Assembly (NCBI GenBank): GCA_039024555.1 | Contig: JBCCQQ010000029.1 | Span: 1-64,000, forward strand | Reading direction: 5' to 3' | Length of the DNA stretch: 64,000 bases | Source: Cyanobacteria bacterium P01_D01_bin.156 | GTDB taxonomy: Bacteria > Cyanobacteriota > Cyanobacteriia > Phormidesmidales > Phormidesmidaceae | Shown here: piece by piece, positions 32,622 to 55,529 of the stretch | How positions within the stretch are numbered: position 1 is the stretch's first letter | Layout of the letters: each line of letters starts with the position of its first letter | The notes under the pieces: model-generated | The model's input: the letters and a program-made list of their open reading frames with translations, nothing else | What the model was told of the DNA's origin: nothing | The model's database searches: none | Made by a program: the position numbers and the translations under genes

Positions 32622-33911
32622 TTAGGGCCGTTCATGGTTGTTATCTTCCAGATCAGCAACGGCCGCTTCTGGACTTTTACCGTCTTCTAGAATGCTGATA
32701 ATTCCTGGCAGATAAAGATCTAAGGTATGCACATTGAGATAAACTAAATTCTTAACTAGAGCATGGGTGAGGCGGTCTCCTTCTGCATCCAAACTGGTTT
32801 TATAACGAATTTCTCCAGTTTTATAGTTAAGTTCAAAATTACCAATAATCAGACCACTGTTGGCCCGCATTAAAAATTCAGCAATTGGACCATAGTTTTC
32901 GGCTGGGATTATTAGGGGACAAATCGAGTAAAAGACGACCTGCTCAGCGTCATTGTCACACTGGGCTAAACAGGTCCAACGGCCAGCATCTCCTTGAAAG
33001 GCCAGTTGGAGAATCTGGGAGTCGGGTAGCTGCACATAGGCCCAGTCGTCCATATCAAAAAACTGTTTGACGACGTCGGAAATGATGGGTGCCTTTGAGG
33101 AGTTGGCCGCAACGTCTGCGATCGCAGTTTCCCAGTCCACTTGTTCTAAGGCTGCCACCAGCTGATCGGATAGGTGCGACAGGCTGCTTTGTAATTGAGG
33201 TAATTCAGCGTCGATTTCTGTTTGAACAGCGGTTTTGGCTTTGTTTAATAAGGTGCTCAACTGTTCTAGGGCGTCACTGCCAGAGTTGATCAGGGGTTCG
33301 GTAATCTGGGGCGTTGTATACGCCCATAGAGTAGTATAGCCAACAGTCTCTTCCCCCTGCTGCTGTCGTACCGAGCGACAGTACCAATTTTCCATGTAGC
33401 ACCAGGGTGAAATGCTGTCTGTGGCATCAGGATTGGCAGCTGTCGTTGCCGATACTAAAGCCTGCAGTAGCTGTTCGGTTGGTTCGGTAGTTGCCGGTGA
33501 GTCTAAAACTGCTAGGAGCTGGGTTAATACCGGCTTAACAGGGGCTTCTGAATTAGCGGATTCTAGGACCGCTGATGACAACAGTTGGCTATCTAATCCA
33601 AGTTCTAAACTAATGGCGGTATCCGCTTGCAACGTTAGCGACTGCAGTGGCCCCCGAACTTCTGGTCGCAGGTGAAACAGTCCCTGTTCTAGAATTTGTT
33701 CGTACTGTTCTAGGGAAACTGTAACTGTCAGGTAACAGTCGGTAATTTTTTGCTGACTGTCTTTCACACTGGTCAGCTGCACTGCCGTGACCATGAATTT
33801 GCTGACTGGCTCTGCTGTTGTACTCCACAGACGTAATGGACAGTTGAGAGGCAGCGTGTGAACGCTATCAGCAGTTAGGGGGGACTGGGTCACGGTGGCA
33901 GTTGGCATCAT
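32622..33911 (-). CDS. YbjN-domain protein with long N-terminal extension
   Basis: C-terminal FQGDAGRW...VVFYSICP...EFLMRANSGLIIGNFEL...GEIRYKTSLD is the YbjN (T3SS-chaperone-like) signature. Confidence 0.8.
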   Translation of the reverse strand: MMPTATVTQSPLTADSVHTLPLNCPLRLWSTTAEPVSKFMVTAVQLTSVKDSQQKITDCYLTVTVSLEQYEQILEQGLFHLRPEVRGPLQSLTLQADTAISLELGLDSQLLSSAVLESANSEAPVKPVLTQLLAVLDSPATTEPTEQLLQALVSATTAANPDATDSISPWCYMENWYCRSVRQQQGEETVGYTTLWAYTTPQITEPLINSGSDALEQLSTLLNKAKTAVQTEIDAELPQLQSSLSHLSDQLVAALEQVDWETAIADVAANSSKAPIISDVVKQFFDMDDWAYVQLPDSQILQLAFQGDAGRWTCLAQCDNDAEQVVFYSICPLIIPAENYGPIAEFLMRANSGLIIGNFELNYKTGEIRYKTSLDAEGDRLTHALVKNLVYLNVHTLDLYLPGIISILEDGKSPEAAVADLEDNNHERP

Positions 33912-33925
33912 ACATATCCCATAGA

Positions 33926-36900
33926 TTATTGCTTTTGGGCTTGAGGTGTGGCTCGAATAATGACATCAATGGTTTCTGGATTCAGACGACGCACTTTCGA
34001 ACTAACTTTCATTTTGCGGTCTTGAGCTTGGTCTATTTTGTCAACAGACTTAGCCGTTTTGTCAGTAGACGAAGGTGTGACTTTATCCGGTGTAGGCGTA
34101 TCCGCAACAGGTTCTTTGGTGGGAGTGGCCGTATCGGTTTTGTGATCAGTGGTTGGATCAGCTGCCTTGACTGAAGTCTTCGGTGGGGGAGCATCGGCTG
34201 CTGTTATTGGCTTCGCTGTGTCGGTCTGGGTAGATTTGCTAGCCGTGGGGTTGTTGACGTTATCGGTAACCTTGGCGGCTCCTTTACGGGCTGCACCCCC
34301 TAAACGCTTTAGAAAACTAGCGATTTTGCTGGCGCGTATAAACTTGGCCCGACCGTTAATCTTGACAATGTATTGAAATGAGTCTCCTACCTCTGCATAG
34401 GTTACGAGCTTTACAAGCTGCATTTCAAACATGACCCGTACTTTGTCCAGCTTGCGAGCAACGGTATCCGGATCGGGATCTTGGTTGACGATATCTTGAA
34501 TGACTTTAACAATATCGTTTACCAAGCTAGGGGGGAGAGCCTCTTCTGGAGTTTCTTCCTCCTCAGACATTTGGGTGTCTTCTTCTGGAGGGGCTTCCTC
34601 TTCTTCTTCTTGTTTTTCTTCGATTCTGACGTTCACGGTGAGCTTAGAATCTTTATCGGTAATCCGCGATCGCACCGTCACATCTTCTTCTTTTTTGCCA
34701 CCTCCCGATAGCAGTCCACTGGCCGCTGCTCCAGCCGCTGCCCCAGCTGCTACTGCAGTCAAATTTCCTGCTTCAGGCGTGCTTTCTCCGGTGTTTTCTG
34801 CATCCCGCTGGATCCACAAACCCAGCCCCGATCTATCAGCGACTCGCTGTACCGGTGGAGGTGTTGCCTCTGGACGGGAGACACGCTGCCCCACGGCTGG
34901 CTGGTCGCCCGATTGCTGAATCACATGGGTGAGTTCGTGGGCCAGCAAGTGTTGACCACTATCAGTCTCTGGAGCATAGGTGCCCCGTCGGAAAAAGATA
35001 TCCCGCCCGGTGGTAAATGCCTTGGCCTGTATGGCACGGCTAAGGCGATCTCCTTCGTTCCCAGTGTGTATACGTACAGGGCTGAAGTCCGTGGCAAACG
35101 CATCTTCTAACGGTGCCCTAACGGCTGAGGAAAGGGTCTGGCCCCGTCCCTCAGACCGCTGAATATCGGTTTCGAGGGTGGGTTGGATAATGTGTTGTGG
35201 CTGGGCAGGAGCGGCGGCAACTTTTTGGGCCGATTTATTGTTCTTTTTATCGACTTCTCCGCTAATTTTGTACCGACTGCCGTCGCGCTTAGTCTTGGTA
35301 ACGGTGAGGGCCTTCAGCTTGTACTGTTTTTTCAGTTGTTTGGCATATTTTTTAATCTTTTTGAAGTCGGCATTGCGTTTGATTCTACCTTTGAGTTTAT
35401 CGCGAACCTTTTTGAGAACCTTATCCTTTTCGACCAGTTTTGCTTCTACCGTAAAGTCACCTTTCTTTTTAGTGGCCTTAAGTTTTTTCTTTTTGACGGC
35501 AACGTCATTATTCTCATCTTTCCAATCACCCTGATTGGATTTACGCTGGGCCACACCCACCTGATGTCCTGAACGCTGTTGCTGTACATGGGTGAGCTCG
35601 TGGGCCAGTAAATGTTTTCCCTGGGGAGTATCGGGCTGGTAATGCCCCTGCCGGAAAAAGATATCTTGATTGACGGTGAATGCCTGGGCATTCATGGCTC
35701 GGCTCAAGCGGTCACCTTCCGCATCGTGGTGGATGCGTACACCCGAGAAATCAGCCGTGCCGAAGGCATCTTCCATGGAGGACTGCACCGGGTCAGATAG
35801 CTGATTTCCCTGCCCTGATAAGCGTTGGACATGCTCTTCTACGGAAGCTGAATCATGGGGGACTGCGGTTACCCCAGGCAAAGGTTTTCTGCGGGCCTTG
35901 GTTCCTTTACCCTTTTTATCCGGTTTGGCAGTGGCTTTGCCAATAACCTGGTATTTCTTGTTGCCTTTTTTCTTTAATGTTAAAGAATCCAGATCGCGTT
36001 TTTTCTTGATACTCGACAACTTGCCTTTGACCTTATCTGGATCCCGTTTGTCATCTGCCAGGTTGCGGACATCTGTAACAGCAGCCTTTAACTGCTTCTT
36101 TAGATTACTTTTAGGGTTGTTTTTTTTATCCTTGTCTTTATCCTTTTTCTTCTTAGGATCCTTGTCATCATCGTCATCGTCTTTTTTCTTCTTTTTAGGA
36201 TCCTGCTTATCATCGTCCTTTTTCTTTTTAGGATCCTTGTCATCATCGTCATCCTTCTTTTTCTTAGGATCTTGGCTATCATCATCGTCATCATCATTAT
36301 TTTTCTTCTTATTGGAGTCTTGGTTGCTCTTGTTAGAATCTTTTTCTGCTGTGGACTTATCTTGGGAGTTAGTTTTACCTTTATTGGTATCGTTTGCCTG
36401 GCCAGTTGGTTTGGACGATTGCTGGTTAGTGGAATCCTTATTCGCAGGCTGACTTGAGTTCTTAGATGAAGCAGGAGTACTGCTATTTTTTTGCTCCGGT
36501 GGCTTGTCATTGGCCTTATTTTGCTCGGATGACTTGTCATCATCATCGTCTTTATTCTTCTTCTTATTGCGTTTTTTCCCAGATTTACTAGCTGCCTTAT
36601 CGGCTAATCCCGATACTCCACCTTCAATGGCCCCCACTGGATCAAGCAGCATACCCAGTTTCTCAAAGATTCCGCCTAATCCTTTATCAACAGGGGTGCG
36701 TAATTTCTCAACAACGTTACCAATTTTATTTGGAATGCCTCCCAGCCCCAGGAGGCTAGCAAAGAAACCAAGGGCGAGGGGGATGATTTTTGCCAGGGCT
36801 AATTCAACCGCCTGGGCTACCGGTTGCCAAGTTTTGGAAACAACAGCTGAGAAAACCGCCCCAATGGATTTTAGAACCTCGAAAATCATGTCTTTGTTGT

Positions 36901-39900
36901 TGATCAAAAAGATCACCACATCAACAATCATTTTGACGATTTTGGCAATGCCGGACGCTGGGTTCATTAATCCAATAATGTATTGAATGCCTGCGATCGC
37001 AATCTCTGGAATAACAACCTGGGTCACAATCATGGTGATAAACTCACCCTTGAGGCTAGAAAATACATCCTTGATGAAATCCCAGATAGCCATAAAGCCT
37101 TTTTTCGGAAAATCACCAATGGCCTGGAAAAAGCTCATCACATACTGGGGGACACCTAGGTCTTTCAAAGTCTCCGTTAAATTAGATAAAGCACTCAAAC
37201 CCTGATCGAGCAGCATCCGTAGCAGCTCAACCGCCCAATCTGGCATCAGACTGGCGGCTAATTCAAAAATGGCATCCTTGGTTAGCCCCAAAATTTGGAG
37301 CAAAATATCGATAACCCCCTGTAAATCGAACTTATCTGGAAACTTAATTTGAATGCCGCTACCCAGTAACCATTCAAAAAAGCCATTAATAACGTGCTTG
37401 AGAATGTTGTTGCCAAATTTTTTGAAGCCTTCACCAATGCCCGTGAAGAGCGTGTTCATTACTCCACCAGGATCATCCACAAAGGCATCTAAAAACGCAT
37501 TAACATGGGAACCAATGCCAGGAATCAGGGAAATGGGCGGCTTCAAAATGTTCAAAACCTGCCGCAAAATCCATTTGCCAATTTCCGCTAGGGCGCTAGC
37601 AATTTTGCTCACCAAACTGGCATTGGCGGCCTTCAGTTCTTCAATGCGTTCATTAACTTCTTTTAGGGACGCTTCATACTTCGCCTTAAGATCGTCAACC
37701 AGGGAGTTTTGTTTATCTCGAATGGTCTGTTCTAGGCCGTCAAACTGTGCTTGGACCGTTGCTGCAGCATCTAGGCCAATGGAGCGGAGATCATCGGGTA
37801 GTGCTGCCACATATTCTTGTACCCGCTGGCGGCCACGATCCACTTCGGCTTTAGCATTGGTTAGCTCTTCTTCAACAATATCGGCAATGCGATGGACACC
37901 TTGGCGTTGAACATTTAGGTAATCCTCTTTGGCAATCTCATAGATATTGTTAACCTCATCGGGGAGGCCGGTAAATACCTTATTCACTAACCAAAGGGGA
38001 GTATTAAAAATTGGCTTCATATAGAAGCGAATTTTTATATATGCCCAGCCAGCTTTGATTTCTATCCAGGGGATATACATCGGGTTGCGCACCCGATAGT
38101 ATTGGTGTTTCCAATTCTCAAACAGCTGCTTTTGTCGGCGTTCAAAGACAGCCTTGGCTCGTCTATCGGTCGCTGCAAATTCATCATTGACCCGCTGATC
38201 CATCCGGGTCAGAGTGCCGTTGACATTGCCTTTAGTCTCATCGTAGATGGCTTGAATTTCTTGGGAAACGCGGGTCCGTTCACTTTCGTCTGTGGTTTGA
38301 CTTTCTTGCTGGCTCTCCTGTACCCCTAGCATTTCTTCCATGCGGGTGGCAAACATATCGTCGTTGCCTGCCGCAATAGTATCGGTCTGGGATTTTTCAG
38401 TATCTGCTTGTACAGAGGCTTCTGTTTGGCGAAATTTTTGCTGAGCGCCACCACCAAAATGTTGTTTGCCCTCCTCCAGGGCTCCGGTGGCATCTACACC
38501 GGCATCCTTCTCGTAGGACTTCAGACGATTCTCGTCTAACGGGACTGGGTTATCTTTTTGCGTGGGAGTTTCCGCCTCCACTATGGCCTGGCGCTGCAAA
38601 AACAGCCCTGGCAGCAGTTGAATATCTGGCAGCTGAGTAACCTGGGGCTGACGCTGGACCTCTTGGCCGTTCTCGGTTTCAGTCTGTACTGCCGGGTCAG
38701 TTGCTGTTTCAGGTTGAGGGGTAGCAGGGACTTGTTTATTGTGCTTGGCGGGTTCAGTTGCCAGTTTGGGAGTGTTCATCGCCATGACGGTATCCGCCAT
38801 GTGATCGGCTTCCTGCTCAAATTTATCCCCCGGTGCGCCAACCATAAGTTTGGCCTGTATGGGGGGGAGGTCCTTCTTATTCTTGGGAACTAAATTTTCA
38901 AGCGCCTGCTGAGTTTCTTGCAGGGGTTTTTCCACCTCTTCTTCGGTGCGAGGTTTTGGCGTGGCTGCGGTTGCATTAATGGACTCATCCGGTGGTTTTT
39001 CACCAGCTTCTTCGACGGCTTCAGGAGCTTGCGTAACCGGTTTAGGGTCTTCACTAGCTGGGTCCGGGGCGCGGGTGGCTGACTCTTTTAATTCACCTTC
39101 CGACTTGGACTTGGCTTTATTGACTTCGGCGGTAACTTTCTCCGAAGAGCCATCCATGCCCTTGCCTTCTTCAATATCCTTTTGGGATTTTGGTTTATTC
39201 GATTCTAGGACTGAGAGAAGGGCAGATACGAAGGATTCTCGATCAAATAGCTGAGGCTTTTTCCCGGCAGCTTCCTCCGATTGGGTCGCTTGGGCACGAC
39301 GGCTTTGCTGCGCCGGGTCGTTGACGGCATCTTGCGCTTCGCGGGCTTTATCAACCGCTGGTTTATGGGTGGATTGTTGGGCTGCAACGTGCTCACTTTG
39401 ATCGACAACGGCGGCAAAGGCCGGGTCTTCATCCGGTGAGCTGGGGGCCTTGGTACCGCTAAAATCAGGGGCTTCGACTAGCCCTGGATCGGGTAGGTGC
39501 TCTGGAGTGCCAATGGGTGTAAGTTCAGGGCTGACCTCCCCGGATTCAGCTGAGCCATCGGCACCTTCTGGCTGTTCTTCGGCAGCGGCTTCTTCACCGT
39601 TATTTTCTGCTTCGGCCTCTTCTGATTTTTTTTGCTGGGTTTCTTTTTCCTCTAGGGCCTTTTGCTCTGCCTGACCAACATCGCTTTGTTGTTTTTGAGT
39701 CTCCTTTTCACCAGTGTTTTCACCCTCATCCTGAGCTTTCTTAGCTTCATTCTCACTTTTGTTCTTTAAATCCTCGGCGGCCTCTTCAGCTTTGTCTTCA
39801 TCGCTGGCATTGCCTAATTTGCTTTTGGCCTCATTGGCCATGTTTCGACCGGCATCACCCCCTTTATCCGCTGCTGAGGTATCGGCTTCACCACTTTGTT

Positions 39901-41053
39901 TACTATTGATCTCCTGATTAATCCCTTTGATGCCCTCATCCACGTCTTTTTTGACGTCATCCTTTTTATCCCGTTGCAGTACCCCTTGAACCCCATGGGA
40001 AATGGAGGGAGCACGGTCGCTCGTTCGCTGCAGAGTATCTGTTTCAGGCCCCTCCTGGGTGTGTTTCACAACCTGGTCTGCCATGCGATCGGCTTCTTGT
40101 TCATAGCGATCGCCTACAGCCCCGACCATTAAATCAGGCTGGATTGTGACTGAAACTTCTTCTAGATTGCCCACCGGTCGGGTTGCTACCTGGGAAATCT
40201 TCTGGCGCTGAACCTTAGGGGCAACGCTGGCGGCAACTGGCTGAGCAGAGGTTGCTAAAGGGGATTTGTTTATCTTTTCGGTCTTTTGGGCTAACCGTTT
40301 AGGATTTACGGTGGATGGGCCAGTTTGTTGAATGGTGTGGGTGAGTTCGTGGGCTAGTAACCGTTTGCCACCAGTGGATTCTGGATTATATTTTCCAGAA
40401 TTGAAGTAAATATCATTTCCGTGGGTAAATGCCTGAGCTTTCAGATTTTGATTCATCTGTACCGCTTCGGCATTGGTGTGGACACGTACCCCACCAAAAT
40501 CATTGCCAAAGCGCGATTCCATGAAGTCACGCGTATTATTTGAGAGGGGTTGTCCTCCGCCCTTACTGCTTTGTAAGCGGCTTTCAATAGTAGACCCCGC
40601 TTCAAAGGAACCGTCCTCTGATTTGGTTTGTAATGGTGGGGCTGTTAATGAATTAGGCTCTGCCTTGAGGGTAACGGCACCGTCTTCCCATTTCTCGTCG
40701 GCTTTGGAAACGTTATCTGCCAGGGGGCCAGTTTCTAGAGGTTTGAGACTGACGGCACCATCTTCCCAGCGTTCTTTGACACCGTCTACTGTCTGTCGCT
40801 GAATGCGTCGTTGAATCGGTTTAGCCGGTCTATACTCGGCAATTGCCACCTGTTCAAAGTGGTGGCCCTGGGTATCCGCCTGTTGTATTGGGTTATTGGG
40901 TGGTTCACCCGCCATTTGAATCTGGCCACCTTCATAGTCCAGACTTTGCTCATCGGATTCTGGCTGAGTGTCCTGGCTGTCAAACAGAGATTGTCCGCCA
41001 GCGGGAGCCGGAGTCGGAGTCGCGGAAACCTGAGTTTTTGCCTTTGTTGTCAT
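33926..41053 (-). CDS. Giant eCIS cargo / tape-measure-like protein with three DUF4157 (eCIS core) domains
   Basis: Three DFS.VR.H...AFT.G.DIFF..G.Y.P...G..LLAHELTH..QQ domains, two VG..GD..EQEAD motifs, a central amphipathic/hydrophobic helical region and a K/D-rich linker. Confidence 0.88.
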   Translation of the reverse strand: MTTKAKTQVSATPTPAPAGGQSLFDSQDTQPESDEQSLDYEGGQIQMAGEPPNNPIQQADTQGHHFEQVAIAEYRPAKPIQRRIQRQTVDGVKERWEDGAVSLKPLETGPLADNVSKADEKWEDGAVTLKAEPNSLTAPPLQTKSEDGSFEAGSTIESRLQSSKGGGQPLSNNTRDFMESRFGNDFGGVRVHTNAEAVQMNQNLKAQAFTHGNDIYFNSGKYNPESTGGKRLLAHELTHTIQQTGPSTVNPKRLAQKTEKINKSPLATSAQPVAASVAPKVQRQKISQVATRPVGNLEEVSVTIQPDLMVGAVGDRYEQEADRMADQVVKHTQEGPETDTLQRTSDRAPSISHGVQGVLQRDKKDDVKKDVDEGIKGINQEINSKQSGEADTSAADKGGDAGRNMANEAKSKLGNASDEDKAEEAAEDLKNKSENEAKKAQDEGENTGEKETQKQQSDVGQAEQKALEEKETQQKKSEEAEAENNGEEAAAEEQPEGADGSAESGEVSPELTPIGTPEHLPDPGLVEAPDFSGTKAPSSPDEDPAFAAVVDQSEHVAAQQSTHKPAVDKAREAQDAVNDPAQQSRRAQATQSEEAAGKKPQLFDRESFVSALLSVLESNKPKSQKDIEEGKGMDGSSEKVTAEVNKAKSKSEGELKESATRAPDPASEDPKPVTQAPEAVEEAGEKPPDESINATAATPKPRTEEEVEKPLQETQQALENLVPKNKKDLPPIQAKLMVGAPGDKFEQEADHMADTVMAMNTPKLATEPAKHNKQVPATPQPETATDPAVQTETENGQEVQRQPQVTQLPDIQLLPGLFLQRQAIVEAETPTQKDNPVPLDENRLKSYEKDAGVDATGALEEGKQHFGGGAQQKFRQTEASVQADTEKSQTDTIAAGNDDMFATRMEEMLGVQESQQESQTTDESERTRVSQEIQAIYDETKGNVNGTLTRMDQRVNDEFAATDRRAKAVFERRQKQLFENWKHQYYRVRNPMYIPWIEIKAGWAYIKIRFYMKPIFNTPLWLVNKVFTGLPDEVNNIYEIAKEDYLNVQRQGVHRIADIVEEELTNAKAEVDRGRQRVQEYVAALPDDLRSIGLDAAATVQAQFDGLEQTIRDKQNSLVDDLKAKYEASLKEVNERIEELKAANASLVSKIASALAEIGKWILRQVLNILKPPISLIPGIGSHVNAFLDAFVDDPGGVMNTLFTGIGEGFKKFGNNILKHVINGFFEWLLGSGIQIKFPDKFDLQGVIDILLQILGLTKDAIFELAASLMPDWAVELLRMLLDQGLSALSNLTETLKDLGVPQYVMSFFQAIGDFPKKGFMAIWDFIKDVFSSLKGEFITMIVTQVVIPEIAIAGIQYIIGLMNPASGIAKIVKMIVDVVIFLINNKDMIFEVLKSIGAVFSAVVSKTWQPVAQAVELALAKIIPLALGFFASLLGLGGIPNKIGNVVEKLRTPVDKGLGGIFEKLGMLLDPVGAIEGGVSGLADKAASKSGKKRNKKKNKDDDDDKSSEQNKANDKPPEQKNSSTPASSKNSSQPANKDSTNQQSSKPTGQANDTNKGKTNSQDKSTAEKDSNKSNQDSNKKKNNDDDDDDSQDPKKKKDDDDDKDPKKKKDDDKQDPKKKKKDDDDDDKDPKKKKDKDKDKKNNPKSNLKKQLKAAVTDVRNLADDKRDPDKVKGKLSSIKKKRDLDSLTLKKKGNKKYQVIGKATAKPDKKGKGTKARRKPLPGVTAVPHDSASVEEHVQRLSGQGNQLSDPVQSSMEDAFGTADFSGVRIHHDAEGDRLSRAMNAQAFTVNQDIFFRQGHYQPDTPQGKHLLAHELTHVQQQRSGHQVGVAQRKSNQGDWKDENNDVAVKKKKLKATKKKGDFTVEAKLVEKDKVLKKVRDKLKGRIKRNADFKKIKKYAKQLKKQYKLKALTVTKTKRDGSRYKISGEVDKKNNKSAQKVAAAPAQPQHIIQPTLETDIQRSEGRGQTLSSAVRAPLEDAFATDFSPVRIHTGNEGDRLSRAIQAKAFTTGRDIFFRRGTYAPETDSGQHLLAHELTHVIQQSGDQPAVGQRVSRPEATPPPVQRVADRSGLGLWIQRDAENTGESTPEAGNLTAVAAGAAAGAAASGLLSGGGKKEEDVTVRSRITDKDSKLTVNVRIEEKQEEEEEAPPEEDTQMSEEEETPEEALPPSLVNDIVKVIQDIVNQDPDPDTVARKLDKVRVMFEMQLVKLVTYAEVGDSFQYIVKINGRAKFIRASKIASFLKRLGGAARKGAAKVTDNVNNPTASKSTQTDTAKPITAADAPPPKTSVKAADPTTDHKTDTATPTKEPVADTPTPDKVTPSSTDKTAKSVDKIDQAQDRKMKVSSKVRRLNPETIDVIIRATPQAQKQ
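36120..36300 (-). repeat. Coding tandem repeat (DDDD-x-DPKKKK) x4
   Basis: Repeated TCATCATCGTC...TTCTTAGGATC units encoding DDDDDSQDPKKKK DDDDDKDPKKKK DDDKQDPKKKKK DDDDDDKDPKKKK. Confidence 0.85.
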
Positions 41054-41096: not shown

Positions 41097-42407
41097 TTAT
41101 CCCCCCACGGTCATGAGCGTTAGGGCTTTGTTAAGCCAGTGAGACTTTTGCGATCGCTGGTGTGGGAAAATAGTATCCACGTCAATTTCGCCATAGTCCA
41201 GCTGTTGAATCAGGGCCTTACAGAGCTGAATGGTGTTATCTTCTGGCTGATGTAACAGTTCAGGATGAGAATTGTCGAATACAGGATCTAAATAGCGGCC
41301 ATCGACCCAGGTGGGCGAAACCCCCAAATAGGCTTTGGCGTTGAGCGGTTGCCCCGGTTGGTAGGTAAACTTGAGATAGGCTAAACGCTTAACCAACAGA
41401 CATTCGCGATAGGGGGCCAGCTGATCTGACCAGTGTTGCAACAGAGCTGGGAAGGGTGCCAGGTTATCCTGAGACCGTATATAGCCGGGATAGGCCAGTA
41501 GTGCAGCTGCGCGATCGCAGGAACAAATTCCCATCGTCACCAGGCGATTCAGAACCTGTTGCCAATCGTTTTTTTGGCCAAAGTAACATTCCACCGCAAT
41601 GTGCGGTGATAGCTCGTGGTGAATTTCTAGCTGTAGGGATAGGGATTGGGCACCGTGACACACCCCACTTAGCAAAGGTGTCAGTAGATCCAGGTCCCCA
41701 GACCAGTTAAGCTGCTGGAGCATTGAACGTATCCGTTGCAGCGTCATATCCTTGATGTAAAGCCTGAGACCGGGTACATCATCTGACTGGCTAACCCGAC
41801 CTGACAGTGCACCCACTTGAAACAGCGGAGTGGTGGGTGAGAGTGTGGAAAGACACTGCTGTAGTGTGTGCTGAGTGTCTGTTGGCAAGGTACGGCCCAG
41901 CAATGCGGGTAAAGCCTGTTGGCCAATCCAGTCTAGACTGTTGCCACGGCTCTCCTTGAGTCCGAAAAAGCTACTAGGTACCGGCAGCTCTGCATTATTT
42001 TGATTGATGTCAAATTCTAACCAGATATCTTCAATCTCGGATTGGAGAGCCTGTTGGGGAGATTGCCAAAGACGGGCCAACTGCTGAATATGGTGCCAGG
42101 GCGTTTGAGTCCACAGGTCTGTAAACCCTGGAGGCATTAACTCCGGTTCTCGATGTAGTTGACTAAGGACCGGTAGCGTTAAGGGTTGTCCCGCTAAGAG
42201 GGACTGTCCCCAGGCTCCACTTACCCGTAAGAAAAAGTCCGCCTCCGTCGGCTGGGATAGGGGACATTCAAACCCTACCGTTGTTCCTAAGGTAAGCGGT
42301 AACTGTTCTGCGACTGTACCAATTGCGGCCAGGGCTGACGGTGTTATCAGCTGGTCAGAAATTGTTGGTGCGATCGCAATAATAATGTCATTTAGGGAAG
42401 ATACCAT
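41097..42407 (-). CDS. Putative ABBA/DMATS-like aromatic prenyltransferase-fold protein
   Basis: GFECPL...ADFFL, DIWLEFD, FQVG, LRLYI, IAVECYF and LKFTYQPGQPLNAKAYLG give alternating alpha/beta blocks ending in a K-x-Y strand, as in ABBA barrels. Start at ATG 42407 (MVSSLND), 2 nt after the upstream stop. Confidence 0.45.
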   Translation of the reverse strand: MVSSLNDIIIAIAPTISDQLITPSALAAIGTVAEQLPLTLGTTVGFECPLSQPTEADFFLRVSGAWGQSLLAGQPLTLPVLSQLHREPELMPPGFTDLWTQTPWHHIQQLARLWQSPQQALQSEIEDIWLEFDINQNNAELPVPSSFFGLKESRGNSLDWIGQQALPALLGRTLPTDTQHTLQQCLSTLSPTTPLFQVGALSGRVSQSDDVPGLRLYIKDMTLQRIRSMLQQLNWSGDLDLLTPLLSGVCHGAQSLSLQLEIHHELSPHIAVECYFGQKNDWQQVLNRLVTMGICSCDRAAALLAYPGYIRSQDNLAPFPALLQHWSDQLAPYRECLLVKRLAYLKFTYQPGQPLNAKAYLGVSPTWVDGRYLDPVFDNSHPELLHQPEDNTIQLCKALIQQLDYGEIDVDTIFPHQRSQKSHWLNKALTLMTVGG

Positions 42408-42409
42408 CC

Positions 42410-42565
42410 TTAGGGCTCCTGGGCTATTAGCTGGTAAACCTCTTGCACCCAACGATGGCGCTCTTGATGTTCCAGCGACAAAATTTCTTGACGTGACCAG
42501 TGAAAATGAAACGCAATTAAGGCTATCTCTTGGTACAGCTGTTCCAAGGGATAGCCAGGAGCTCC
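42410..42565 (-). CDS. DUF6760-like small eCIS protein, probably the -1 frameshift extension of the upstream tail-assembly chaperone (missing from the ORF track)
   Basis: The -1 frame reads GAPGYPLEQLYQEIALIAFHFHWSRQEILSLEHQERHRWVQEVYQLIAQEP*. No ATG in frame. GGGGGAG at 42568-42562. Confidence 0.8.
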   Translation of the reverse strand, partial: GAPGYPLEQLYQEIALIAFHFHWSRQEILSLEHQERHRWVQEVYQLIAQEP

Positions 42566-42909
42566 CCCATTAGGGAAAGCCGGTAGTCGGAAGGATTGAT
42601 ATCATTATAAAGCTCGATCAAGTAGTGTACATCGGCCATAAAGAGATGACCCACATCATCGGCACTCAGCTGTGGATGTCCCTGGAGCTGTGTAACCCGT
42701 GATAAGCGTAACAAGATTCCATAGGCATCACTGTCCATCATTTGTGACCCATGGTGGGCAGCCAGTTCATCGGCTCCAGTGGCCAATCGCATGTGGCCCT
42801 GGCGATACGCCTCTGTCTCAGTGGTGAATCCTTGGGGAAGTTCCAACGGTACTTGGGTAGAACCAGGTGGTTTACTGGCTGGTTCTAAGGAAGGCAGGGG
42901 AGACATCAT
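42523..42909 (-). CDS. Tail assembly chaperone-like protein (paralogue 2)
   Basis: LELPQGF...RQGHMRLATGADEL...LSRVTQL...LFMADVHYLIELYNDIN is the conserved eCIS post-tube protein pattern. Confidence 0.78.
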   Translation of the reverse strand: MMSPLPSLEPASKPPGSTQVPLELPQGFTTETEAYRQGHMRLATGADELAAHHGSQMMDSDAYGILLRLSRVTQLQGHPQLSADDVGHLFMADVHYLIELYNDINPSDYRLSLMGELLAIPWNSCTKR

Positions 42910-43295
42910 GACGTCGCAGCAACAAGTTCTTGGGTAAGCGCATTTTCGATATCTGTTATGGACTCAGCAGAAATATCTGCCTCGGTAAGTATTGCCGGAC
43001 TGTTGATCTGTCGATAAAGGGTTTGCAGGTAGCCCAAGTCCGAGGCAAACATATTTTCCAACACCTGGGGAGTCACTTCGGGTAAATCCCCTAGGGAGAC
43101 AATCACCCGAGTCAGGATGATAATGGAGGCATAGGCTGGGTTAGCTTGTACCCGAGGGTCCTGCAGGGGTAAAATCTCATCCATGGCCCGCGATCGCCTC
43201 ATGATGCCCACTTGGTGCACCTGACCAAAGTCATCAACATAGCCAGTGGGTAAGCAAAACTCAAATTCTGTTTGCATCATTGTTTTCTTTTGCAT
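42906..43295 (-). CDS. Tail assembly chaperone-like protein (paralogue 1)
   Basis: TEFEFCLPTGYVD..G.VH..GIMR...DEILPLQDPRVQANPAY...LTRVI..LG...ENMFASDLGYLQTLYRQIN. Confidence 0.85.
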   Translation of the reverse strand: MQKKTMMQTEFEFCLPTGYVDDFGQVHQVGIMRRSRAMDEILPLQDPRVQANPAYASIIILTRVIVSLGDLPEVTPQVLENMFASDLGYLQTLYRQINSPAILTEADISAESITDIENALTQELVAATS

Positions 43296-43298
43296 ATG

Positions 43299-43829
43299 TT
43301 AACTAATGGGGCTGACCCGCTTAAAGCCTTCGCAGGCCAGCTCTAAATCTTCAAAGGCTAGGTCTGTGCCCGACACCATACTGTCTGACAGGGTGTAACT
43401 GACCGGCCAGGCACCCTCAAACTGAAACCGGGCTCCGGCGGTGCCATCCTGACGATAAAGTGTGATCGAACCATCTTTGCAAGCCGCTGGCCATCCCCCA
43501 TCCTGGGCCAGGTCAATCCAATTCCACAGGGTTTCTGAGGCCCCCATACCCCGGCGCAGATTAATATTGTCAATGCGCTCGACGCCAGGAATTTTACTGC
43601 GATGGATAAGTCCCACCGAACTACCCTGACGGCCCCAACCTTCAGGGAACGATTCTGTGAACTCAATCACATCTTGGTAGTACTTGAGCCCCTTACATTC
43701 CATAAACAATCCGTCCACATCATCTACGCTGTCGTTTAAGTGGAGTTCCACATAAAAGCGAGATGCCGTGAGATATTCATAAAATGTTGTGGTGTCCTCA
43801 GGGGATGGTGTGGTTACCACATTCACCAT
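43299..43829 (-). CDS. Phage tail tube protein (gp19/Afp1-5-like)
   Basis: RFYVEL, FMECKGL, NINLRRGM, LWNW, KDGSI, RFQFEGAWPVSY, FEDLELACEG. Confidence 0.9.
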   Translation of the reverse strand: MVNVVTTPSPEDTTTFYEYLTASRFYVELHLNDSVDDVDGLFMECKGLKYYQDVIEFTESFPEGWGRQGSSVGLIHRSKIPGVERIDNINLRRGMGASETLWNWIDLAQDGGWPAACKDGSITLYRQDGTAGARFQFEGAWPVSYTLSDSMVSGTDLAFEDLELACEGFKRVSPIS

Positions 43830-43961
43830 GCTGTAACTCTCCTTTTATAACGTTGAGTATTAGGGTGTTAGAGCCATAGTCATTACCCACATCGCAAGAT
43901 GTAATTTAGGACGGTTCGAAGTTTTGTAGACTCACCCAGAAGCCGCGTTTTTACCCTATCC

Positions 43962-44486
43962 CTAGGCGGATGTACCCGCTGTCGGTACTCGAATTAGGCC
44001 TGCATGGGCAATCTCAATGGTTTCCTTAAATAGATCGGTACTCTCGGTTTGCACCTGGGTGGTGGTGTACTTTGCTGGAATCGCATCACGAATTGACCAG
44101 CGTGCACCTTCTGTACCATCTTGTTTGTAGAAGACTAAACCACCCGAAAAGCGATTTTTCATTTCTGGGCGGCCACCACCAATGGCAGACTTGGGATGAC
44201 AATCCAGGTACCAGTTCAACAAAATATCATTTTCGCGGGCAGTCACAAACTCTAGCGTTAGGTTCTCGTAGGTGACGCCGCTGGGGGTAATTTGGGTTTG
44301 GGTGACAATTCCTTTACCAACACCGATAGGTTGTCCTTCGGCAGCGGGATCAATTGAAATGGATACACCGCTACATTTGGAAATTAAAAGGCGGGTGGTG
44401 GCATCATATTCAAAGTAAAATCGGCTGACGGTGAGATATTCCATTCGTGCCGTACTGTAGGCAAAGGCGCTGGCTGCAGCAACCAT
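43962..44486 (-). CDS. Phage tail tube protein (gp19-like, divergent)
   Basis: RFYFEYD, TYENLTLE, LLNWY, RWSIRDAIPAKY, ETIEIAHAGL. Confidence 0.85.
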   Translation of the reverse strand: MVAAASAFAYSTARMEYLTVSRFYFEYDATTRLLISKCSGVSISIDPAAEGQPIGVGKGIVTQTQITPSGVTYENLTLEFVTARENDILLNWYLDCHPKSAIGGGRPEMKNRFSGGLVFYKQDGTEGARWSIRDAIPAKYTTTQVQTESTDLFKETIEIAHAGLIRVPTAGTSA

Positions 44487-44566: not shown

Positions 44567-45118
44567 TTAAGAATAGCTCACCGCCAGGGAAGCGCGACGA
44601 TCGGAAGCGCTGGTATTAGAACTCGATAGCGAAACAACCTTATCAATATGTTCGGCCACGAGTTCGTAAGTCTCCACCGCCAAGTCTTGTCCAGTCACAT
44701 CAGGATCGGAAATAGAGTACTTTTTAACCCAGGCCCGGAATAAGTTCCAACGCAGTACCTCGTCACCTTGGGGATCGTAGACAACAATGGAGCCCGTGCG
44801 ACGGTTTTTAGACCAGTTGCCACGACCGCCATCACTGGGGGGTAAACACTCTTGGAACCAGTTATAAAGTTGGAAGCTGGCACTACGAGAGTCGTCGCAC
44901 ATATAGACTTCCACCGTCATTGACGGACTAGAATCGTAGCCGCCAGATGTGGTCTGTCGAGATGTTTTACCACCCTTGGTTGAGGCAATTGCTTTAGCAT
45001 TACCCGTGACCTTAGCCTCATAGGAGAGCTGGGCCATGCTCTTAATTTCTGCTTCTGTGATGCCGTCGAATTCAATGTAGTAACTCGACGCCGTGGTGGT
45101 AAAAATTGGTTCAGCCAT
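44567..45118 (-). CDS. Phage tail tube protein (gp19-like, divergent)
   Basis: YYIEFDG, LYNWF, RRTGSIVVYDPQGDEVLRWNLFRAWVKKY, LAVETYELVAE. Directly follows the sheath gene. Confidence 0.87.
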   Translation of the reverse strand: MAEPIFTTTASSYYIEFDGITEAEIKSMAQLSYEAKVTGNAKAIASTKGGKTSRQTTSGGYDSSPSMTVEVYMCDDSRSASFQLYNWFQECLPPSDGGRGNWSKNRRTGSIVVYDPQGDEVLRWNLFRAWVKKYSISDPDVTGQDLAVETYELVAEHIDKVVSLSSSNTSASDRRASLAVSYS

Positions 45119-45268: not shown

Positions 45269-46999
45269 CTAACTCTCGTCCTGACCATTCCACTGGCTGA
45301 TGCGGAAGATCACAAATTCCGCAGGACGTACCGGGCATACTCCCACTTCGATATACAATCGACCTAACAGCATGGTGTCAGAGGTATTTAGCTCACCGTC
45401 GCACTTAACGTAAAAAGCCTGTTCAGGGCTGCTACCCATAAGTGCGCCTTGTCGCCATAATTCTGTCAAGAAATTACTAACAACTCGCTTGACGCGCTGC
45501 CACAGATCTTCGTCGTTGGGCTCAAAAACAACCCACTGGGTACCTGTTTCGATGGACTTTTCAATGTAGCTCATTAGACGACGTACATTGATGTAGCGCC
45601 ATTCAGTAATATCGGGTTCCACCAAAGTGCGAGCACCCCAAATACGAATGCCACGACTGGGGAACGGACGTAAACAATTAATACCAATGGGGTTAAGTTG
45701 TTCCTGTTCCCGGAAGTTGCAATTGTAGGCTAGACCAGTGACACCGCGTGGTACCTCGTTGGCTGGCGCCTTGTGTACACCACGGGTTTCATCGGTGCGC
45801 GCCCACACACCCATAATATGACCACAGGGAGGAACCGTAATCGGGCGGCCACCATTGCGAGGGTTGGGGACTTCAATCCACGGATAGTAGAGGGCTGCAA
45901 ACTGCGAACGACGATTAAACTCTTCTGATAACCAGTGACTGACATCTTCAGGTTTTATGCGATCTGGGGGAGGATCAAACACCACCATACGATTAGGCGG
46001 ATTTGGAATGTCTCCTGCCGCGGCGGCTTCGCACATGCTAATCATCAAATCCATTACTGAGTGGACCTGATCAATATCCATTAACCCGGCTTCGTATACC
46101 CGCATAACATCGGGACAGGCAATAATGGTGACTTCGTCAATTTCAAATAGCCCCCGTAGGCCCGTACGATCATTGCCTGCCCCTTCTAAATGGCTAGGTA
46201 GTTCATCTTGGGATGATACGGGTAATGGTGGACTAATTTCGTAAAGTCCATTAGCTGGGCGGCGAGCCAAAATGCTACCGGTACTGTTGAGGGAGGTGGC
46301 AACAACATAGTTAGAGGTGCGTAGAGCATCCTCCACGTAGTCGGCAACGGCAGTATTTACCTGGGGATTCATGGTCAAGTGTTCAAACCGCTCTAGGGTT
46401 TCGTCACCTTGACGTACTGCAACAGTAAAGAACTCACCTGTATTGATATTGACTGTGGTGGCAGTAGCGGTGTTACCGTTACTGCTTTCTCCATCGCCAT
46501 TGTTGTCGACAGCGCTGGGTGGTTTGGGAGTACCGTTTAGGATTTGAATTTTCAGCGCACGGCTACCACCATTTTGAGATCCATTACTGAGTTGAGGCAT
46601 GCCGCTAGACTGCAGAGAGAATCTCAGAGTAGGGCGATCTCGACGGCTGAGTAAATCAGTGCCACTTTCAGTGACTTCGGGGGCAGGTGTTCCTGGGAGA
46701 CGTGTACCTATGCTGGTTACCCAACAACGACCACCGCCATTGAGAAACCAACCATAGACCGAAAATGGTAAATAGGCATCAAAATCAGTAAATCCATCGG
46801 AGTTAGGTTTGCCAAAATACTCCAAATACTGATTCCAGGTTGTTACCATCATGGGTCGAAAGAGTTCAGCCCCACCCCTAACATCCTCTGTAAATCCTAC
46901 AAAGCCAGCGATCGCAGTGGGTAATCCTTCGATTGGACGACTGCCGCGATCAACTTCCTCGACGTAAACCCCTGGCGCAAAATAGTCCAATCTTGCCAT
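45269..46999 (-). CDS. Contractile tail sheath protein (Afp2/3/4-like)
   Basis: YFAPGVYVEEV, FLNGGGRCWV, AALYYPW, VHKAPANE, IWGARTL, WRYINVRR, WVVFEPN, PVRPAEFVIFRISQ. ATG at 46999 preceded by GAGGT. Confidence 0.96.
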   Translation of the reverse strand: MARLDYFAPGVYVEEVDRGSRPIEGLPTAIAGFVGFTEDVRGGAELFRPMMVTTWNQYLEYFGKPNSDGFTDFDAYLPFSVYGWFLNGGGRCWVTSIGTRLPGTPAPEVTESGTDLLSRRDRPTLRFSLQSSGMPQLSNGSQNGGSRALKIQILNGTPKPPSAVDNNGDGESSNGNTATATTVNINTGEFFTVAVRQGDETLERFEHLTMNPQVNTAVADYVEDALRTSNYVVATSLNSTGSILARRPANGLYEISPPLPVSSQDELPSHLEGAGNDRTGLRGLFEIDEVTIIACPDVMRVYEAGLMDIDQVHSVMDLMISMCEAAAAGDIPNPPNRMVVFDPPPDRIKPEDVSHWLSEEFNRRSQFAALYYPWIEVPNPRNGGRPITVPPCGHIMGVWARTDETRGVHKAPANEVPRGVTGLAYNCNFREQEQLNPIGINCLRPFPSRGIRIWGARTLVEPDITEWRYINVRRLMSYIEKSIETGTQWVVFEPNDEDLWQRVKRVVSNFLTELWRQGALMGSSPEQAFYVKCDGELNTSDTMLLGRLYIEVGVCPVRPAEFVIFRISQWNGQDES

Positions 47000-47638
47000 A
47001 GGTCTGACCTCTAACCTCCACAATTAGTGCGAATCGAGTATTCATTTCAGTAAAAAAGGTTTCTGTTCTAAAAGAACAATCTTTTGTTGCACATTAGCGG
47101 AGACCTCTTCATCTCGGTTAGTAGACTTTTGTCGGGTTTCCTAATCTTTGCTCCATCTTGTGATGGTGACAGTCAGTTCTCTGGCGGATTAAACCGTTTC
47201 CTATTAGGTGTTATTGAGTCTCTGTTCGCAAACACATCTGTGAGATGTCAGTTATATGTCGTCAGAGTTAATCAAGAAAGAATCAAAACTTTTTGATAAT
47301 TTGTTACAGAGCCCAAAAACGCGATAGTGAGCCAGATAAATCTGTTTAATAATAATTTTAGAATGCCATAGAAAACCTTTTGAGCCAGCTGTTTAGATGC
47401 ACAGACATTGTCTGTCAAAACCATCCTACTTTCAGGCGATTGCTAATTAAACAACTGTTTGTATCATTCATGAAATCTGTCTACGTGGTAACTCGGTGGG
47501 ATGATTGCAAATATGAGGGTTAATGGTTGAAGAGAGCTTGGTGGTTAGCCCCCTATTAACCAAGACAAACTATTTCAGTCAAAAACTCCCTTTTAAAGCA
47601 GTGATACTTCTCAAGACATCAAGCATTTATCAGAATAT
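47000..47638. promoter_or_regulatory. Divergent AT-rich promoter region between the sheath operon and the regulator/ATPase operon
   Basis: About 640 bp, non-coding and AT-rich, between divergent starts. No specific operator identified. Confidence 0.55.
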
Positions 47639-48367
47639 ATGACTGTTTCTACCGATTTGCTTCAACGCTTCTCAACTGCTGAGGATCCTCTCTCGTTGCA
47701 ACAATATTCTATATTGTTGGCAGATGGTGACTGTAAGTTTCGTCAAGGATTACGATTGCTGTTGGAATTTTATAATGCTAACGGTAATCGTAAATGTGTG
47801 GTGGTGGGTGAGGCTGCCTCGGGGGCACAGGCTCTGCACCTGAGTCAAAGCCAACATCCTAGCCTGATTATTCTAGATGTCGGTTTAGAAAATAGCTGGG
47901 AAGCTACGGTTGACATTTTGGCTCAATTACAGCAACAGGACTCTGCTCCCCATGTATTACTGGTTAACAATAGTCAGGAACCTGACCATTTGTTTGAAGG
48001 AATGCAGGCAGGAGCATCAGGCTACCTGACTAAAGACCGGATTGCAACAGAATTATTACAAGCCATTAGTACCATTGCTGCTGGCCAAGTTTATCTCAGT
48101 ACGGCGATGGTGAATATGTTTTTCTACTTGTTTCAATCCCATGCGAAACAATCTCTAGAGAAATGTAAATTGCTTCACCTGAGTAAGCGTGAGCAGGAGG
48201 TGCTTAAGCTGTTGGCTCGGGGAGAGTCAAATGAAGAGATCGCTGGAGAACTCTTCATTTCAGTGGCTACCGTTAAATCGCATTTTACTTCTATTTTTGA
48301 AAAACTAGGGGTGAAAAGCCGGACTCAAGCGATTATTCGGGCCCTGCGACTGGGGCTGGTGTCATGA
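47639..48367 (+). CDS. NarL/LuxR-family response regulator (REC + LuxR HTH)
   Basis: VVGEA, LIILDV, GASGYLTKD; LSKREQEVLKLLARGESNEEIAGELFISVATVKSH. Confidence 0.92.
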   Translation: MTVSTDLLQRFSTAEDPLSLQQYSILLADGDCKFRQGLRLLLEFYNANGNRKCVVVGEAASGAQALHLSQSQHPSLIILDVGLENSWEATVDILAQLQQQDSAPHVLLVNNSQEPDHLFEGMQAGASGYLTKDRIATELLQAISTIAAGQVYLSTAMVNMFFYLFQSHAKQSLEKCKLLHLSKREQEVLKLLARGESNEEIAGELFISVATVKSHFTSIFEKLGVKSRTQAIIRALRLGLVS

Positions 48368-49662: not shown

Positions 49663-51635
49663 CTCTCACGGCTTCTCCCCTTACCTGGCAACAGGCCAAT
49701 CAGCAGTACTTACAGGCCCAGTTAACTAAAATAAAATTACAGCTGAGTCAAAAGGCTGAACAGCCCTGTGATCTGCCAGACGATCCGATTAGGGATATCG
49801 AACAGGCCGCCCAACAGCTAGAGTCTCCCTCCTCACTAGAACAGCTTTGCGACACCTTTGAGCTGTCCACCTTTGAGCGAGATATTTTAGTCCTGTGTGC
49901 GGGCATGGAGCTGGATGCCAGCATTGCCCCGCTCTGTGCCCTGGCCCAGGGAGACCCGCAAAAGCCTTTTCCCACATTGAGTTTAGCGCTGAGTTTATTT
50001 ACAGATGCCCATTGGAGTGCGCTAACGCCCCGTGCGCCGCTGCGGCGCTGGCGTTTGATTGAGCTGGGTAAAGGTCTGGGGTTGATGCAGCGATCGCTAC
50101 AGGTGAATGAGCGAATTTTGCATTACCTGGCGGGGATTCATCATTTGGATGAGAGACTGACTGGCCTGATAGAGCCGCTTGGCACCCTAAGTAATCTGGT
50201 GGCTTCTCACCAAGCCTTGGCCAATCAGCTAGCCGATACCTGGGCGCAGGCAGCGGAGCAGCCGACATTGCCTATTTTGCAGCTGGCGGGGGATAGTCCT
50301 ACCAGCCAGCAAGCGATCGCAGGTCGGGTGTGTCGAGATCTCAATCTGCAGCTGCATAGTTTGGCAGGGCAAGATGTCCCGGCTAATGCAAAGGATTTGG
50401 TGCAGTTTCTTCAGCTATGGGAGCGTGAGGCGATCCTGAGCAGCAGTGCGTTGTTGCTGGACTGTACAGAAACCAGTCTAGAAAAACATCAGGAACCGAT
50501 CACTCGGCTGCTAGAACAGATTCGCAGTCCGCTGATGGTGACCACTCGCGATCGCGTTCACTGTCAGAAACGCACCATCCTCAATATCGATGTCAATAAG
50601 CCCAGCCATGGCGAACAGCAAAACCTCTGGGAGCAGCATCTGCAGGCATTTGATCCTAAGTTCCTTCAAGTTGTTCCGGCGTTAGTCACCCAGTTTAACC
50701 TTAGCCATCCTGAAATTGCGGCGGTATGTACCCGTGTGTTTAGTCAGGTGGATCGGGCGACGCTTACCCCTGCGATTCTGCAGGCTGAACTGTGGGATGG
50801 CTGTCGGTTGCAGGCACGACCGCAAATGGACGATTTGGCCCAGCGCATTACGGTAAAAGCCACCTGGGACGATCTGGTGCTGCCGGAGACTCAGCTAGAA
50901 ACCTTGCGTACGGTGACAGCCCAGGTGCGACAGCGGGTAAAGGTATATGAAGACTGGGGATTTTCGAGTAAAAATATGCGCGGTCTGGGCATTAGTGCAT
51001 TGTTTGCTGGACCTAGCGGTACAGGTAAAACTACAGCTGCAGAGATTTTGGCCAATGAGCTAAACCTAGATCTTTATCGCATTGACTTGAGTGCTGTCGT
51101 CAGTAAATACATTGGAGAGACGGAGAAAAATTTACGCCGAGTATTTGATGCGGCGGAAGGTGGCGGTGCGGTGTTGTTGTTTGATGAAGCCGATGCGCTA
51201 TTTGGTAAGCGCAGTGATGTCAAAGACAGTCACGATCGCCATGCAAATATTGAGGTGAGTTATTTGCTGCAGCGGATGGAAGCCTATCAGGGGTTAGCGA
51301 TTCTCACCACTAACTTGAAAGGGGCCTTAGACAGTGCCTTTATGCGGCGGATTCGGTTTGTGTTGCAGTTTACATTTCCGGATGTGAGTCAGCGGATGGA
51401 AATCTGGCGGAGGATTTTTCCAAGGGAGACTCCGACTAAAGACTTAAGTGTGGAACGTCTCGCTCGTTTACAGGTGGCAGGGGGAAATATTAGAAATATT
51501 GCTCTTAATGCGGCGTTTTTGGCTGCAGATGCGGGGGAACCGGTGATGATGAAGCATTTGCTGGTTTCTGCACGAGGGGAATATAGCAAGTTGGAAAAAA
51601 CACTGACGGATCGAGAGATTAAGGGGTGGGTTTAA
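49659..51635 (+). CDS. eCIS AAA+ ATPase (Afp15/Pvc15-like)
   Basis: GPSGTGKT, VVSKYIGETEKNL, LLFDEADALFGKRS, ILTTN, AFMRR. Confidence 0.95.
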   Translation: MTLTASPLTWQQANQQYLQAQLTKIKLQLSQKAEQPCDLPDDPIRDIEQAAQQLESPSSLEQLCDTFELSTFERDILVLCAGMELDASIAPLCALAQGDPQKPFPTLSLALSLFTDAHWSALTPRAPLRRWRLIELGKGLGLMQRSLQVNERILHYLAGIHHLDERLTGLIEPLGTLSNLVASHQALANQLADTWAQAAEQPTLPILQLAGDSPTSQQAIAGRVCRDLNLQLHSLAGQDVPANAKDLVQFLQLWEREAILSSSALLLDCTETSLEKHQEPITRLLEQIRSPLMVTTRDRVHCQKRTILNIDVNKPSHGEQQNLWEQHLQAFDPKFLQVVPALVTQFNLSHPEIAAVCTRVFSQVDRATLTPAILQAELWDGCRLQARPQMDDLAQRITVKATWDDLVLPETQLETLRTVTAQVRQRVKVYEDWGFSSKNMRGLGISALFAGPSGTGKTTAAEILANELNLDLYRIDLSAVVSKYIGETEKNLRRVFDAAEGGGAVLLFDEADALFGKRSDVKDSHDRHANIEVSYLLQRMEAYQGLAILTTNLKGALDSAFMRRIRFVLQFTFPDVSQRMEIWRRIFPRETPTKDLSVERLARLQVAGGNIRNIALNAAFLAADAGEPVMMKHLLVSARGEYSKLEKTLTDREIKGWV

Positions 51636-51637
51636 CG

Positions 51638-55352: not shown

Positions 55353-55529
55353 TAGATGTCTATGAGCTTTTTTACAAGACCTGTTTAAGGGATAGTGTAT
55401 GACGTGCCGTGAGCGAAGCTTCAAAAGCGGGCAACCTCCAGGGTGAGGTAAGCATTAAATATGCAGCAAGAAAAAGACATTCAGTTCTTAAAACCTCATT
55501 GCCCAGTAGGTAGCAGTAGGGACAGTTCA

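Follow-up and report, generated by a model that had tools for sequence, protein, structure and literature searches.

A tail assembly chaperone gene and DUF6760 are probably joined by a programmed -1 ribosomal frameshift in a cyanobacterial eCIS locus and its relatives

The main finding of this study is that the second of two tail assembly chaperone (TAC) genes in a cyanobacterial eCIS locus, TAC2, probably undergoes a programmed -1 ribosomal frameshift, which would yield a short product, G, of 128 aa and a long product, GT, of 166 aa that carries the DUF6760 domain. We put the probability of this reading, which is built on sequence comparison, at about 0.88. The overlap of the two frames, the slippery site and its codon phase, their conservation, the selected pairing potential downstream and the natural in-frame fusions are all seen in the sequences. 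The locus lies on the minus strand of the window, by which we mean the whole stretch of 64,000 nucleotides that was analysed, and its central features are as follows.

42906..43295, minus strand: TAC1, a paralogous chaperone, G only; phrog_508 tail assembly chaperone, E 1.9e-4
42523..42909, minus strand: TAC2, short product G, 128 aa; 63 bits on a custom eCIS TAC profile, 27% identity to TAC1
42562..42568, minus strand: slippery heptamer G_GGG_GAG, codons Gly115 and Glu116 of TAC2; read from the sequence
42521..42556, minus strand: predicted 3' stimulatory stem-loop, 5 nt past the heptamer; -19.8 kcal/mol, z -4.1
42545..42547, minus strand: TTG, the one codon upstream of the core at which T could start on its own; 14 nt past the G-run, inside the hairpin stem
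42410..42565, minus strand: the -1 frame T, DUF6760, 51 codons from the slip site; Pfam PF20546, 50.4 bits

Re-reading of the window bears out the junction, with every coordinate, as the first-pass annotation had described it. Near its end TAC2 reads CTA ATG GGG GAG CTC, with G_GGG_GAG at 42568-42562 in the chaperone frame, a heptamer that is imperfect as X_XXY_YYZ. Bounded upstream by TAA TGA at 42601, the -1 frame has GGG as its codon 12 and ends with the TAA at 42412-42410; it comprises 63 codons without a single ATG, and TTG 42547 is indeed the only ATG, GTG or TTG upstream of the conserved core. The complete DUF6760-like domain that had been recognized from the G-run onwards is a member of the family, the T segment scoring 50.4 bits against a Pfam cut-off of 27. 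The contig of the likely source run, which is not an independent source, has identical letters and no indel.

The -1 relationship between the two frames is nearly invariant among relatives. Loci were collected by DUF6760 alone, and the queries of the collection scans excluded the slip site. A Pfam draw in the window's phylum (36 of 401 genomes) returned 30 loci; the others came from plasmids and phages, from the best 80 each of the genome and metagenome scans, and from five viral loci. Parsing succeeded for 199 of the 205 loci, and an upstream TAC was present in 194, with two lost for lack of a profile match, four for failing the anchoring pattern (L003, L004, L022, L093) and five for lack of a TAC in the available stretch. 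Among the matches listed, 193 of 194 loci place DUF6760 at -1 to TAC, as do 131 of the 132 left by dereplication at 85% identity; the exception is L153, where DUF6760 forms a gene apart that starts with an ATG. As the first scans favour consensus-like loci, a second Pfam draw covered the phyla to which three centre genomes belong, one archaeal (25 of 351 genomes), one actinobacterial (14 of 301) and one from Chloroflexota (17 of 251). Here 59 of 60 loci were parsed and 58 had a TAC (L271 failed the pattern and L274 had no TAC match); all 58 are at -1 and none is fused, three of them being the centre genomes already counted. Kin are not independent in these frame counts, and the pattern covers two domains, bacteria and archaea. 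The viral contigs contributed five loci, three of them full matches, which are eCIS-like by their neighbours. The same arrangement might be left by a broken fusion gene or by an assembly error in a homopolymer, as in-frame TAC-DUF6760 fusions exist and the break falls at the G-run. However, the recurrence of the identical -1 break in 193 of 194 listed loci and again in 58 of 58, complete genomes included, refutes this explanation, to which we leave almost no probability, and the coding of the T frame is fully conserved.

The slippery motif is conserved together with the frame. Among the matches listed, G_GGG_GRN is present in 119 of 131 dereplicated loci, always in the codon phase of TAC, and at one fixed position in 101 of 131; the 119 sites are GGGGGAA (38), GGGGGAG (29), GGGGGGG (27), GGGGGGA (22) and others (3). 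Within the gene bodies of TAC homologues, 4 of 13,219 codons show an in-frame G_GGG_GR, and the G-run at the junction is thus more than chance. The third base of the glycine codon is G in 116 of the 131 listed loci, GGG making up 22% of glycine codons. Twelve of the 131 are without the motif in the searched span, but one of these is phage BCD7, whose site lies just outside, which leaves about 11. In the second draw 57 of 58 loci have G_GGG_GRN or G_GGA_AAN / G_GGG_AAA. The substitutes are slippery heptamers as well, namely G_GGA_AAG (L164, L179), G_GAA_AAG (L002, from the same genome as the window) and G_GGA_AAT/C in seven haloarchaeal loci. The accessible part of PMC5009743 counts G_GGA_AAG among the shift-prone sites and assigns G_GGA_AAC to halovirus HCTV-1, and according to that of PMC10274946 the "fivetwo" motif in SEA-PHAGES chaperones is GGGGGAA, with re-pairing via G:U. 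In the haloarchaeal loci (L238-L244, L036) G_GGA_AAT/C precedes the position of the bacterial site by at least 12 nt, in the manner of halovirus sites, and methanogen-type loci of the same phylum retain G_GGG_GAA. The first-pass annotation had proposed a comparison of homologues and held that lack of conservation of site or frame would speak against recoding; with 193 of 194 loci at -1 and 119 of 131 carrying the motif, both prove to be conserved across bacteria and archaea. Conserved runs of five to seven G, with seven in 27 of the 131 listed loci, might also be read as places where RNA polymerase adds one G to the transcript. Polymerase slippage, however, usually requires longer runs of A or T; the window has just five G, the G_GGA_AAG/T/C variants have runs of three, and a fixed codon phase with a hairpin at 5 nt fits a ribosomal slip. 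We consider transcriptional slippage very improbable.

A further alternative is that DUF6760 is a separate small gene, in which GGGGGAG serves as a Shine-Dalgarno (SD) sequence and translation begins at TTG 42547, at some near-cognate codon or through coupling with termination of TAC. The G-run does resemble an SD sequence, RefSeq lists DUF6760 proteins that stand alone, in some cases with an overlap of 4 nt, and L153 is a genuine case of a separate gene. A start codon directly follows the site in 27 of the 131 listed loci, and a GTG, ATG or TTG is found near the TAC stop in 14 of 15 drawn Actinomycetota loci, where coupled initiation could occur. All these loci with a nearby start retain the G-run too, so that coupling may add to the slip there rather than replace it. 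Against a separate gene, no start codon is conserved for the DUF6760 frame: among the matches listed, 76 of 131 loci have no ATG, GTG or TTG between the site and the core, and 33 of 131 have no in-frame start anywhere upstream. The position of TTG 42547, which had already been doubted as the true start, is a start codon in just 13 of the 131, and the TTG itself, 14 nt from the G-run, is buried in the stem. The site invariably keeps the codon phase of TAC, which an SD sequence would not have to do, and the G7 and G_GGA_AAT variants are slippery yet poor as SD sequences. In addition, a stable hairpin just behind an SD sequence would hinder initiation, and here such a hairpin is predicted. Taken with these points, a separate gene appears improbable, and a programmed ribosomal frameshift remains our preferred reading.

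The predicted hairpin, which was absent from the first-pass annotation, is selected at synonymous sites and conserved in homologues. In the window, 2 of 2000 synonymous shuffles are as stable as the stem-loop at 42556-42521 (shuffle mean -6.6), which buries TTG 42547 and holds the TAC2 stop, TAG 42525-42523, within its 3' arm. Across the 104 loci that share the common site position, the folding z against synonymous shuffles has a median of -3.4 and is below -2 in 92, compared with medians of -0.1 and -0.35 in two downstream control windows, where it is below -2 in 8 and 5 of 104. Codon choice in the stem is skewed accordingly, with GTA for Val in 77 of 93 (background 9%), GAG for Glu in 102 of 104 (63%) and CCC for Pro in 85 of 92 (25%). 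Of the cells in the 12-pair helix, 85.7% pair, and double changes account for 36, against 13.0 +/- 3.0 in shuffled data; since a helix slid as a control gives 33 cells against 36 and a score of 0.154 against 0.161, covariation by itself is weak evidence for the hairpin. RNAalifold gave no consensus pairs on all 104 junctions and 10 pairs on 23 hand-picked non-actinobacterial rows; in actinobacterial loci the stem folds in a shifted register. SD-like words upstream stimulate -1 slips in dnaX and in IS elements. In 65 of 104 loci such a word stands 8-16 nt ahead of the site, compared with 4-17 of 104 in four control windows; the window itself is without one.

Natural fusions of the two frames were found by a profile search. 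It gave 606 DUF6760 representatives, and the best 150 of the 606 include four in-frame TAC-DUF6760 proteins of 140-159 aa (P0099, P0029, P0033 and P0149), seen as protein sequences. P0033 and P0149 are single, and P0099 and P0029 have four and three cluster members with differing sequences and no Gly-Gly at the joint, which makes a homopolymer error unlikely for these two. A search with P0099 in 401 genomes of the window's phylum gave matches in 37 and no in-frame fusion. An earlier word-index search for longer DUF6760 proteins had given nine candidates, none of which scored. In the AlphaFold2 model of P0099 (pLDDT 92.7), residues 1-94 align with the HK97 TAC 2ob9 at Z 6.2 (rmsd 3.4, 82 aligned) and with YqbN 3klu at Z 6.5 (rmsd 4.2, 86 aligned), and the best BFVD matches of the G domain include a BCD7 protein, a tape-measure chaperone and Mu FS-gp41. 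The G domain is thus predicted, with moderate confidence as Z is below 8, to fold like the HK97 tail assembly chaperone. Foldseek of the model against the PDB returned nothing at E <= 0.001, and the best Atlas match of P0099, at 0.79, was uninformative. On the T side, 9 of 19 DUF6760 members match Phage_P2_GpE (PF06528) weakly, the best at E 0.0093, which is below the Pfam cut-off. Profile-profile comparison of DUF6760 with relatives of P2 E' gave 93.4% and a score of 34.1, against a maximum of 18.6 in 100 column shuffles and 8.0 for the reversed profile; the match covers 30 columns of shallow alignments. These results suggest that DUF6760 is likely a distant homologue of P2 E' and not a member of PF06528. 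The extension of Mu gp41 showed no match to DUF6760.

Taken together, these features suggest how the junction may work. With GGG in the P site and GAG in the A site, ribosomes would be held up by the hairpin, and this structure, 5 nt downstream, would likely assist a slip on G_GGG_GAG; a minority would slip by -1 and make GT (115 + 51 = 166 aa), while most would terminate at 42523. In a tandem slip, tRNA-Gly would re-pair from GGG to GGG and tRNA-Glu from GAG to GGA with one G:U pair; alternatively, the P-site tRNA alone may slip, and the junction residue would be Glu or Gly depending on the mode. On the model of lambda G/GT and P2 E/E+E', many copies of G, those of TAC1 included, would coat a long tape-measure-like cargo, few copies of GT would recruit tube subunits via DUF6760, and the frameshift would set the G:GT ratio. 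That GT recruits tube subunits seems to us somewhat better than an even guess. Likewise by analogy, we infer that DUF6760 is the T domain, with no gene of its own and homologous to P2 E'. The earlier proposal that DUF6760 is the T segment of eCIS and that the phage recoding mechanism has been kept is therefore supported, but P2 E+E' is apparently a nearer phage model for T than the lambda GT that it had invoked.

The P2 gpE/gpE+E' pair (NC_001895, annotated -1 frameshift, PF06528) has the same sheath-tube-chaperone order and slips near the end of the chaperone, and its E' is an extension of about 50 aa with an A-x-x-x-x-F-H-W core, as in DUF6760, in keeping with the 93.4% profile match. However, the slip of P2 occurs on a T-run, with the tape-measure gene directly behind, whereas the eCIS locus combines a G-run with a hairpin, belongs to a cellular injection system and has no recognizable tape-measure gene next. 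Lambda gpG/gpGT are alike in making a short and a long chaperone by low-level -1 slippage, the slip being inferred for eCIS, and the lambda-type G_GGA_AAG is present in two eCIS loci (L164, L179), although the eCIS heptamer is mostly G_GGG_GRN and lambda is a virus while eCIS is a non-viral host system. According to the accessible part of PMC5009743, lambda G coats the tape measure and T binds the tube subunit at a ratio of 30:1, and the frameshift is conserved among tail chaperones (Levin 1993; Xu, Hendrix and Duda 2004, 2013, 2014, as cited there). An HK97-like prophage chaperone cluster frameshifts at 6-7% (PMC3711429, in the part available). The GGGGGAA of SEA-PHAGES actinophages (PRFect, PMC10274946, in the part available) is the same as the commonest eCIS variant (38 of the 131 listed loci), with the same tRNA-Glu G:U pair; those sites are of curated annotation, while eCIS has none, and eCIS second codons also include GAG, GGG and GGA. 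T4-like gp26/gp51 chaperones are the subject of Vladimirov, Gautam and Davidson (2022, PMID 34826709). As far as the accessible part of that source goes, two eCIS TAC genes, one of them with T, recall the separate short and long genes of that system, but in eCIS the second gene still needs a frameshift. Finally, in Bacillus phage BCD7 (JN712910; L037:4222-5180) the gene BCD7_0090 ends GGG GAG TAA, and an unannotated DUF6760-like -1 frame lies between it and the tape-measure-like BCD7_0089. BCD7_0090 matches phrog_150, "baseplate hub", and is a top fold match of the eCIS TAC. By its sequence this is likely a frameshift missed in a GenBank phage; unlike in the window, a tape-measure gene does follow the T frame.

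The surroundings of TAC2 in the window are those of an eCIS operon, with Pvc16_N, AAA, DUF4157, sheath, tube and VgrG as Pfam markers. The genes before and after the two chaperones are listed here.

45269-47023, minus strand: sheath gene; Pfam
44567-45118, 43962-44486 and 43299-43829, minus strand: three gp19-like tube genes; Pfam
41097..42405, minus strand: gene after T, 436 aa from ATG 42405; Atlas Trp_DMAT cluster score 0.90, TM 0.55
33926..41053, minus strand: 2375-aa protein, hydrophobic at its centre, with DUF4157 in three copies; Pfam

The order on the minus strand is sheath, three tubes, TAC1 and TAC2, which places the chaperone genes directly downstream of the tubes; the tube-TAC-DUF6760 order is also found in annotated plasmids, and the best plasmid matches of the locus are from Pseudanabaena and Kovacikia. 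TAC1, a second chaperone gene upstream of TAC2 that the first-pass annotation did not include, is its paralogue (27% identical over 90 aa, E 2e-8), and the TAC2 ATG overlaps the TAC1 stop (ATGA). TAC2 alone has no match in Pfam, PHROG or NCBIfam and is assigned to the TAC family by homology only, to TAC1 and to the eCIS TAC profile. The 3' end of TAC1 was inspected and has neither a slippery site nor a T frame. Among 28 parsed loci of the window's phylum, 17 have two or three TAC genes in the 1.5 kb ahead of T. A position upstream of a tape-measure gene, which had been implied by the lambda model, was not borne out: no recognizable tape-measure gene directly follows T, and the 436-aa product of the next gene resembles, by Atlas leads only, an aromatic prenyltransferase (ABBA/DMATS) and no tape-measure protein; it has no sequence match in Pfam, PHROG, NCBIfam or PDB. 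In the other loci that were read this position is not so occupied, and downstream of T there is often, by eye, a second tube gene or a low-complexity ORF. The locus may thus work like G/GT without being a textbook G/GT-TMP cassette. By analogy, a tentative candidate for a tape-measure-like client of the chaperones is the 2375-aa DUF4157 protein (41053-33926), which has hydrophobic segments at 1338-1430, a helical middle and Lys/Asp-rich repeats, and gave no tape-measure match in PHROG; this is the weakest step of the model, and we hold it with rather less than even confidence. Its architecture is like that of Tme, a tape-measure-related DUF4157 cargo (PMC11126660, in the part available).

The mechanism is known from phages, and its occurrence in eCIS was found unreported within the literature searched. 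A full-text search gave no paper on an eCIS chaperone frameshift and none containing "DUF6760", and the word "frameshift" was not found in the accessible main text of PMC10020575, PMC8894136, PMC6899500, PMC10066040, PMC8213781, PMC11126660, PMC13277306 or the preprint 10.64898/2026.05.27.728243. The content of Vladimirov 2022 lay outside this coverage, and it is the main risk to novelty because its authors' group works on eCIS. If the reading is true, an unannotated G/GT cassette with an RNA stimulator would be common to cyanobacteria, actinomycetes, Chloroflexota, proteobacteria, firmicutes and archaea, a widespread bacterial and archaeal addition to the short list of conserved cellular frameshifts, and a likely function would be at hand for DUF6760 and for a conserved "hypothetical" eCIS gene. 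It would also follow that databases wrongly split TAC-DUF6760 into two genes or leave DUF6760 out. Lineage II and Streptomyces systems are reported to be without a typical tape-measure protein (Chen 2019; Casu 2023, in the parts available); such eCIS would still build their tube around a chaperone-coated cargo, with length control tied to cargo loading via DUF4157/Tme-like proteins. That a G/GT pair has been kept speaks for a hidden client, and it opens the control of tube length and the loading of cargo to tests by single-base changes. Some lineages would be caught between a frameshift and separate genes, as with TAC1 plus TAC2-T and the in-frame fusions. With rather less than even confidence, we speculate that DUF6760 marks one of the most widely conserved cellular programmed frameshifts, that DUF4157/Tme-like cargo is chaperone-coated and that lineages are shifting to separate genes. 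The loci also offer a natural series of slippery sites, and codon optimisation of recoded eCIS genes would destroy the frameshift signal.

Other observations concern the genome as a whole. It has five TAC homologues on three contigs, and two of the five carry T. The second TAC-DUF6760 pair (L002:1453-1638, contig C24) has G_GAA_AAG and the same hairpin, and lies away from its sheath operon on the opposite strand. Further eCIS operons, at C16 near 43749-44177 and C24 near 58199-58558, each have a TAC without a T frame, followed by large low-complexity genes, and GT may be shared in trans among the eCIS operons of the genome. The window contains three large DUF4157 proteins, at 33926-41053 (minus strand), 51626-55195 (plus strand) and 55461-57938 (plus strand). 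YbjN-domain genes at 32622-33911 (minus strand) and 57957-58397 (plus strand) each lie directly behind a large DUF4157 gene and possibly encode cargo chaperones or immunity proteins. A LuxR-type response regulator at 47639-48367 (plus strand) is divergent from the sheath operon and stands ahead of Pvc16 and the AAA ATPase.
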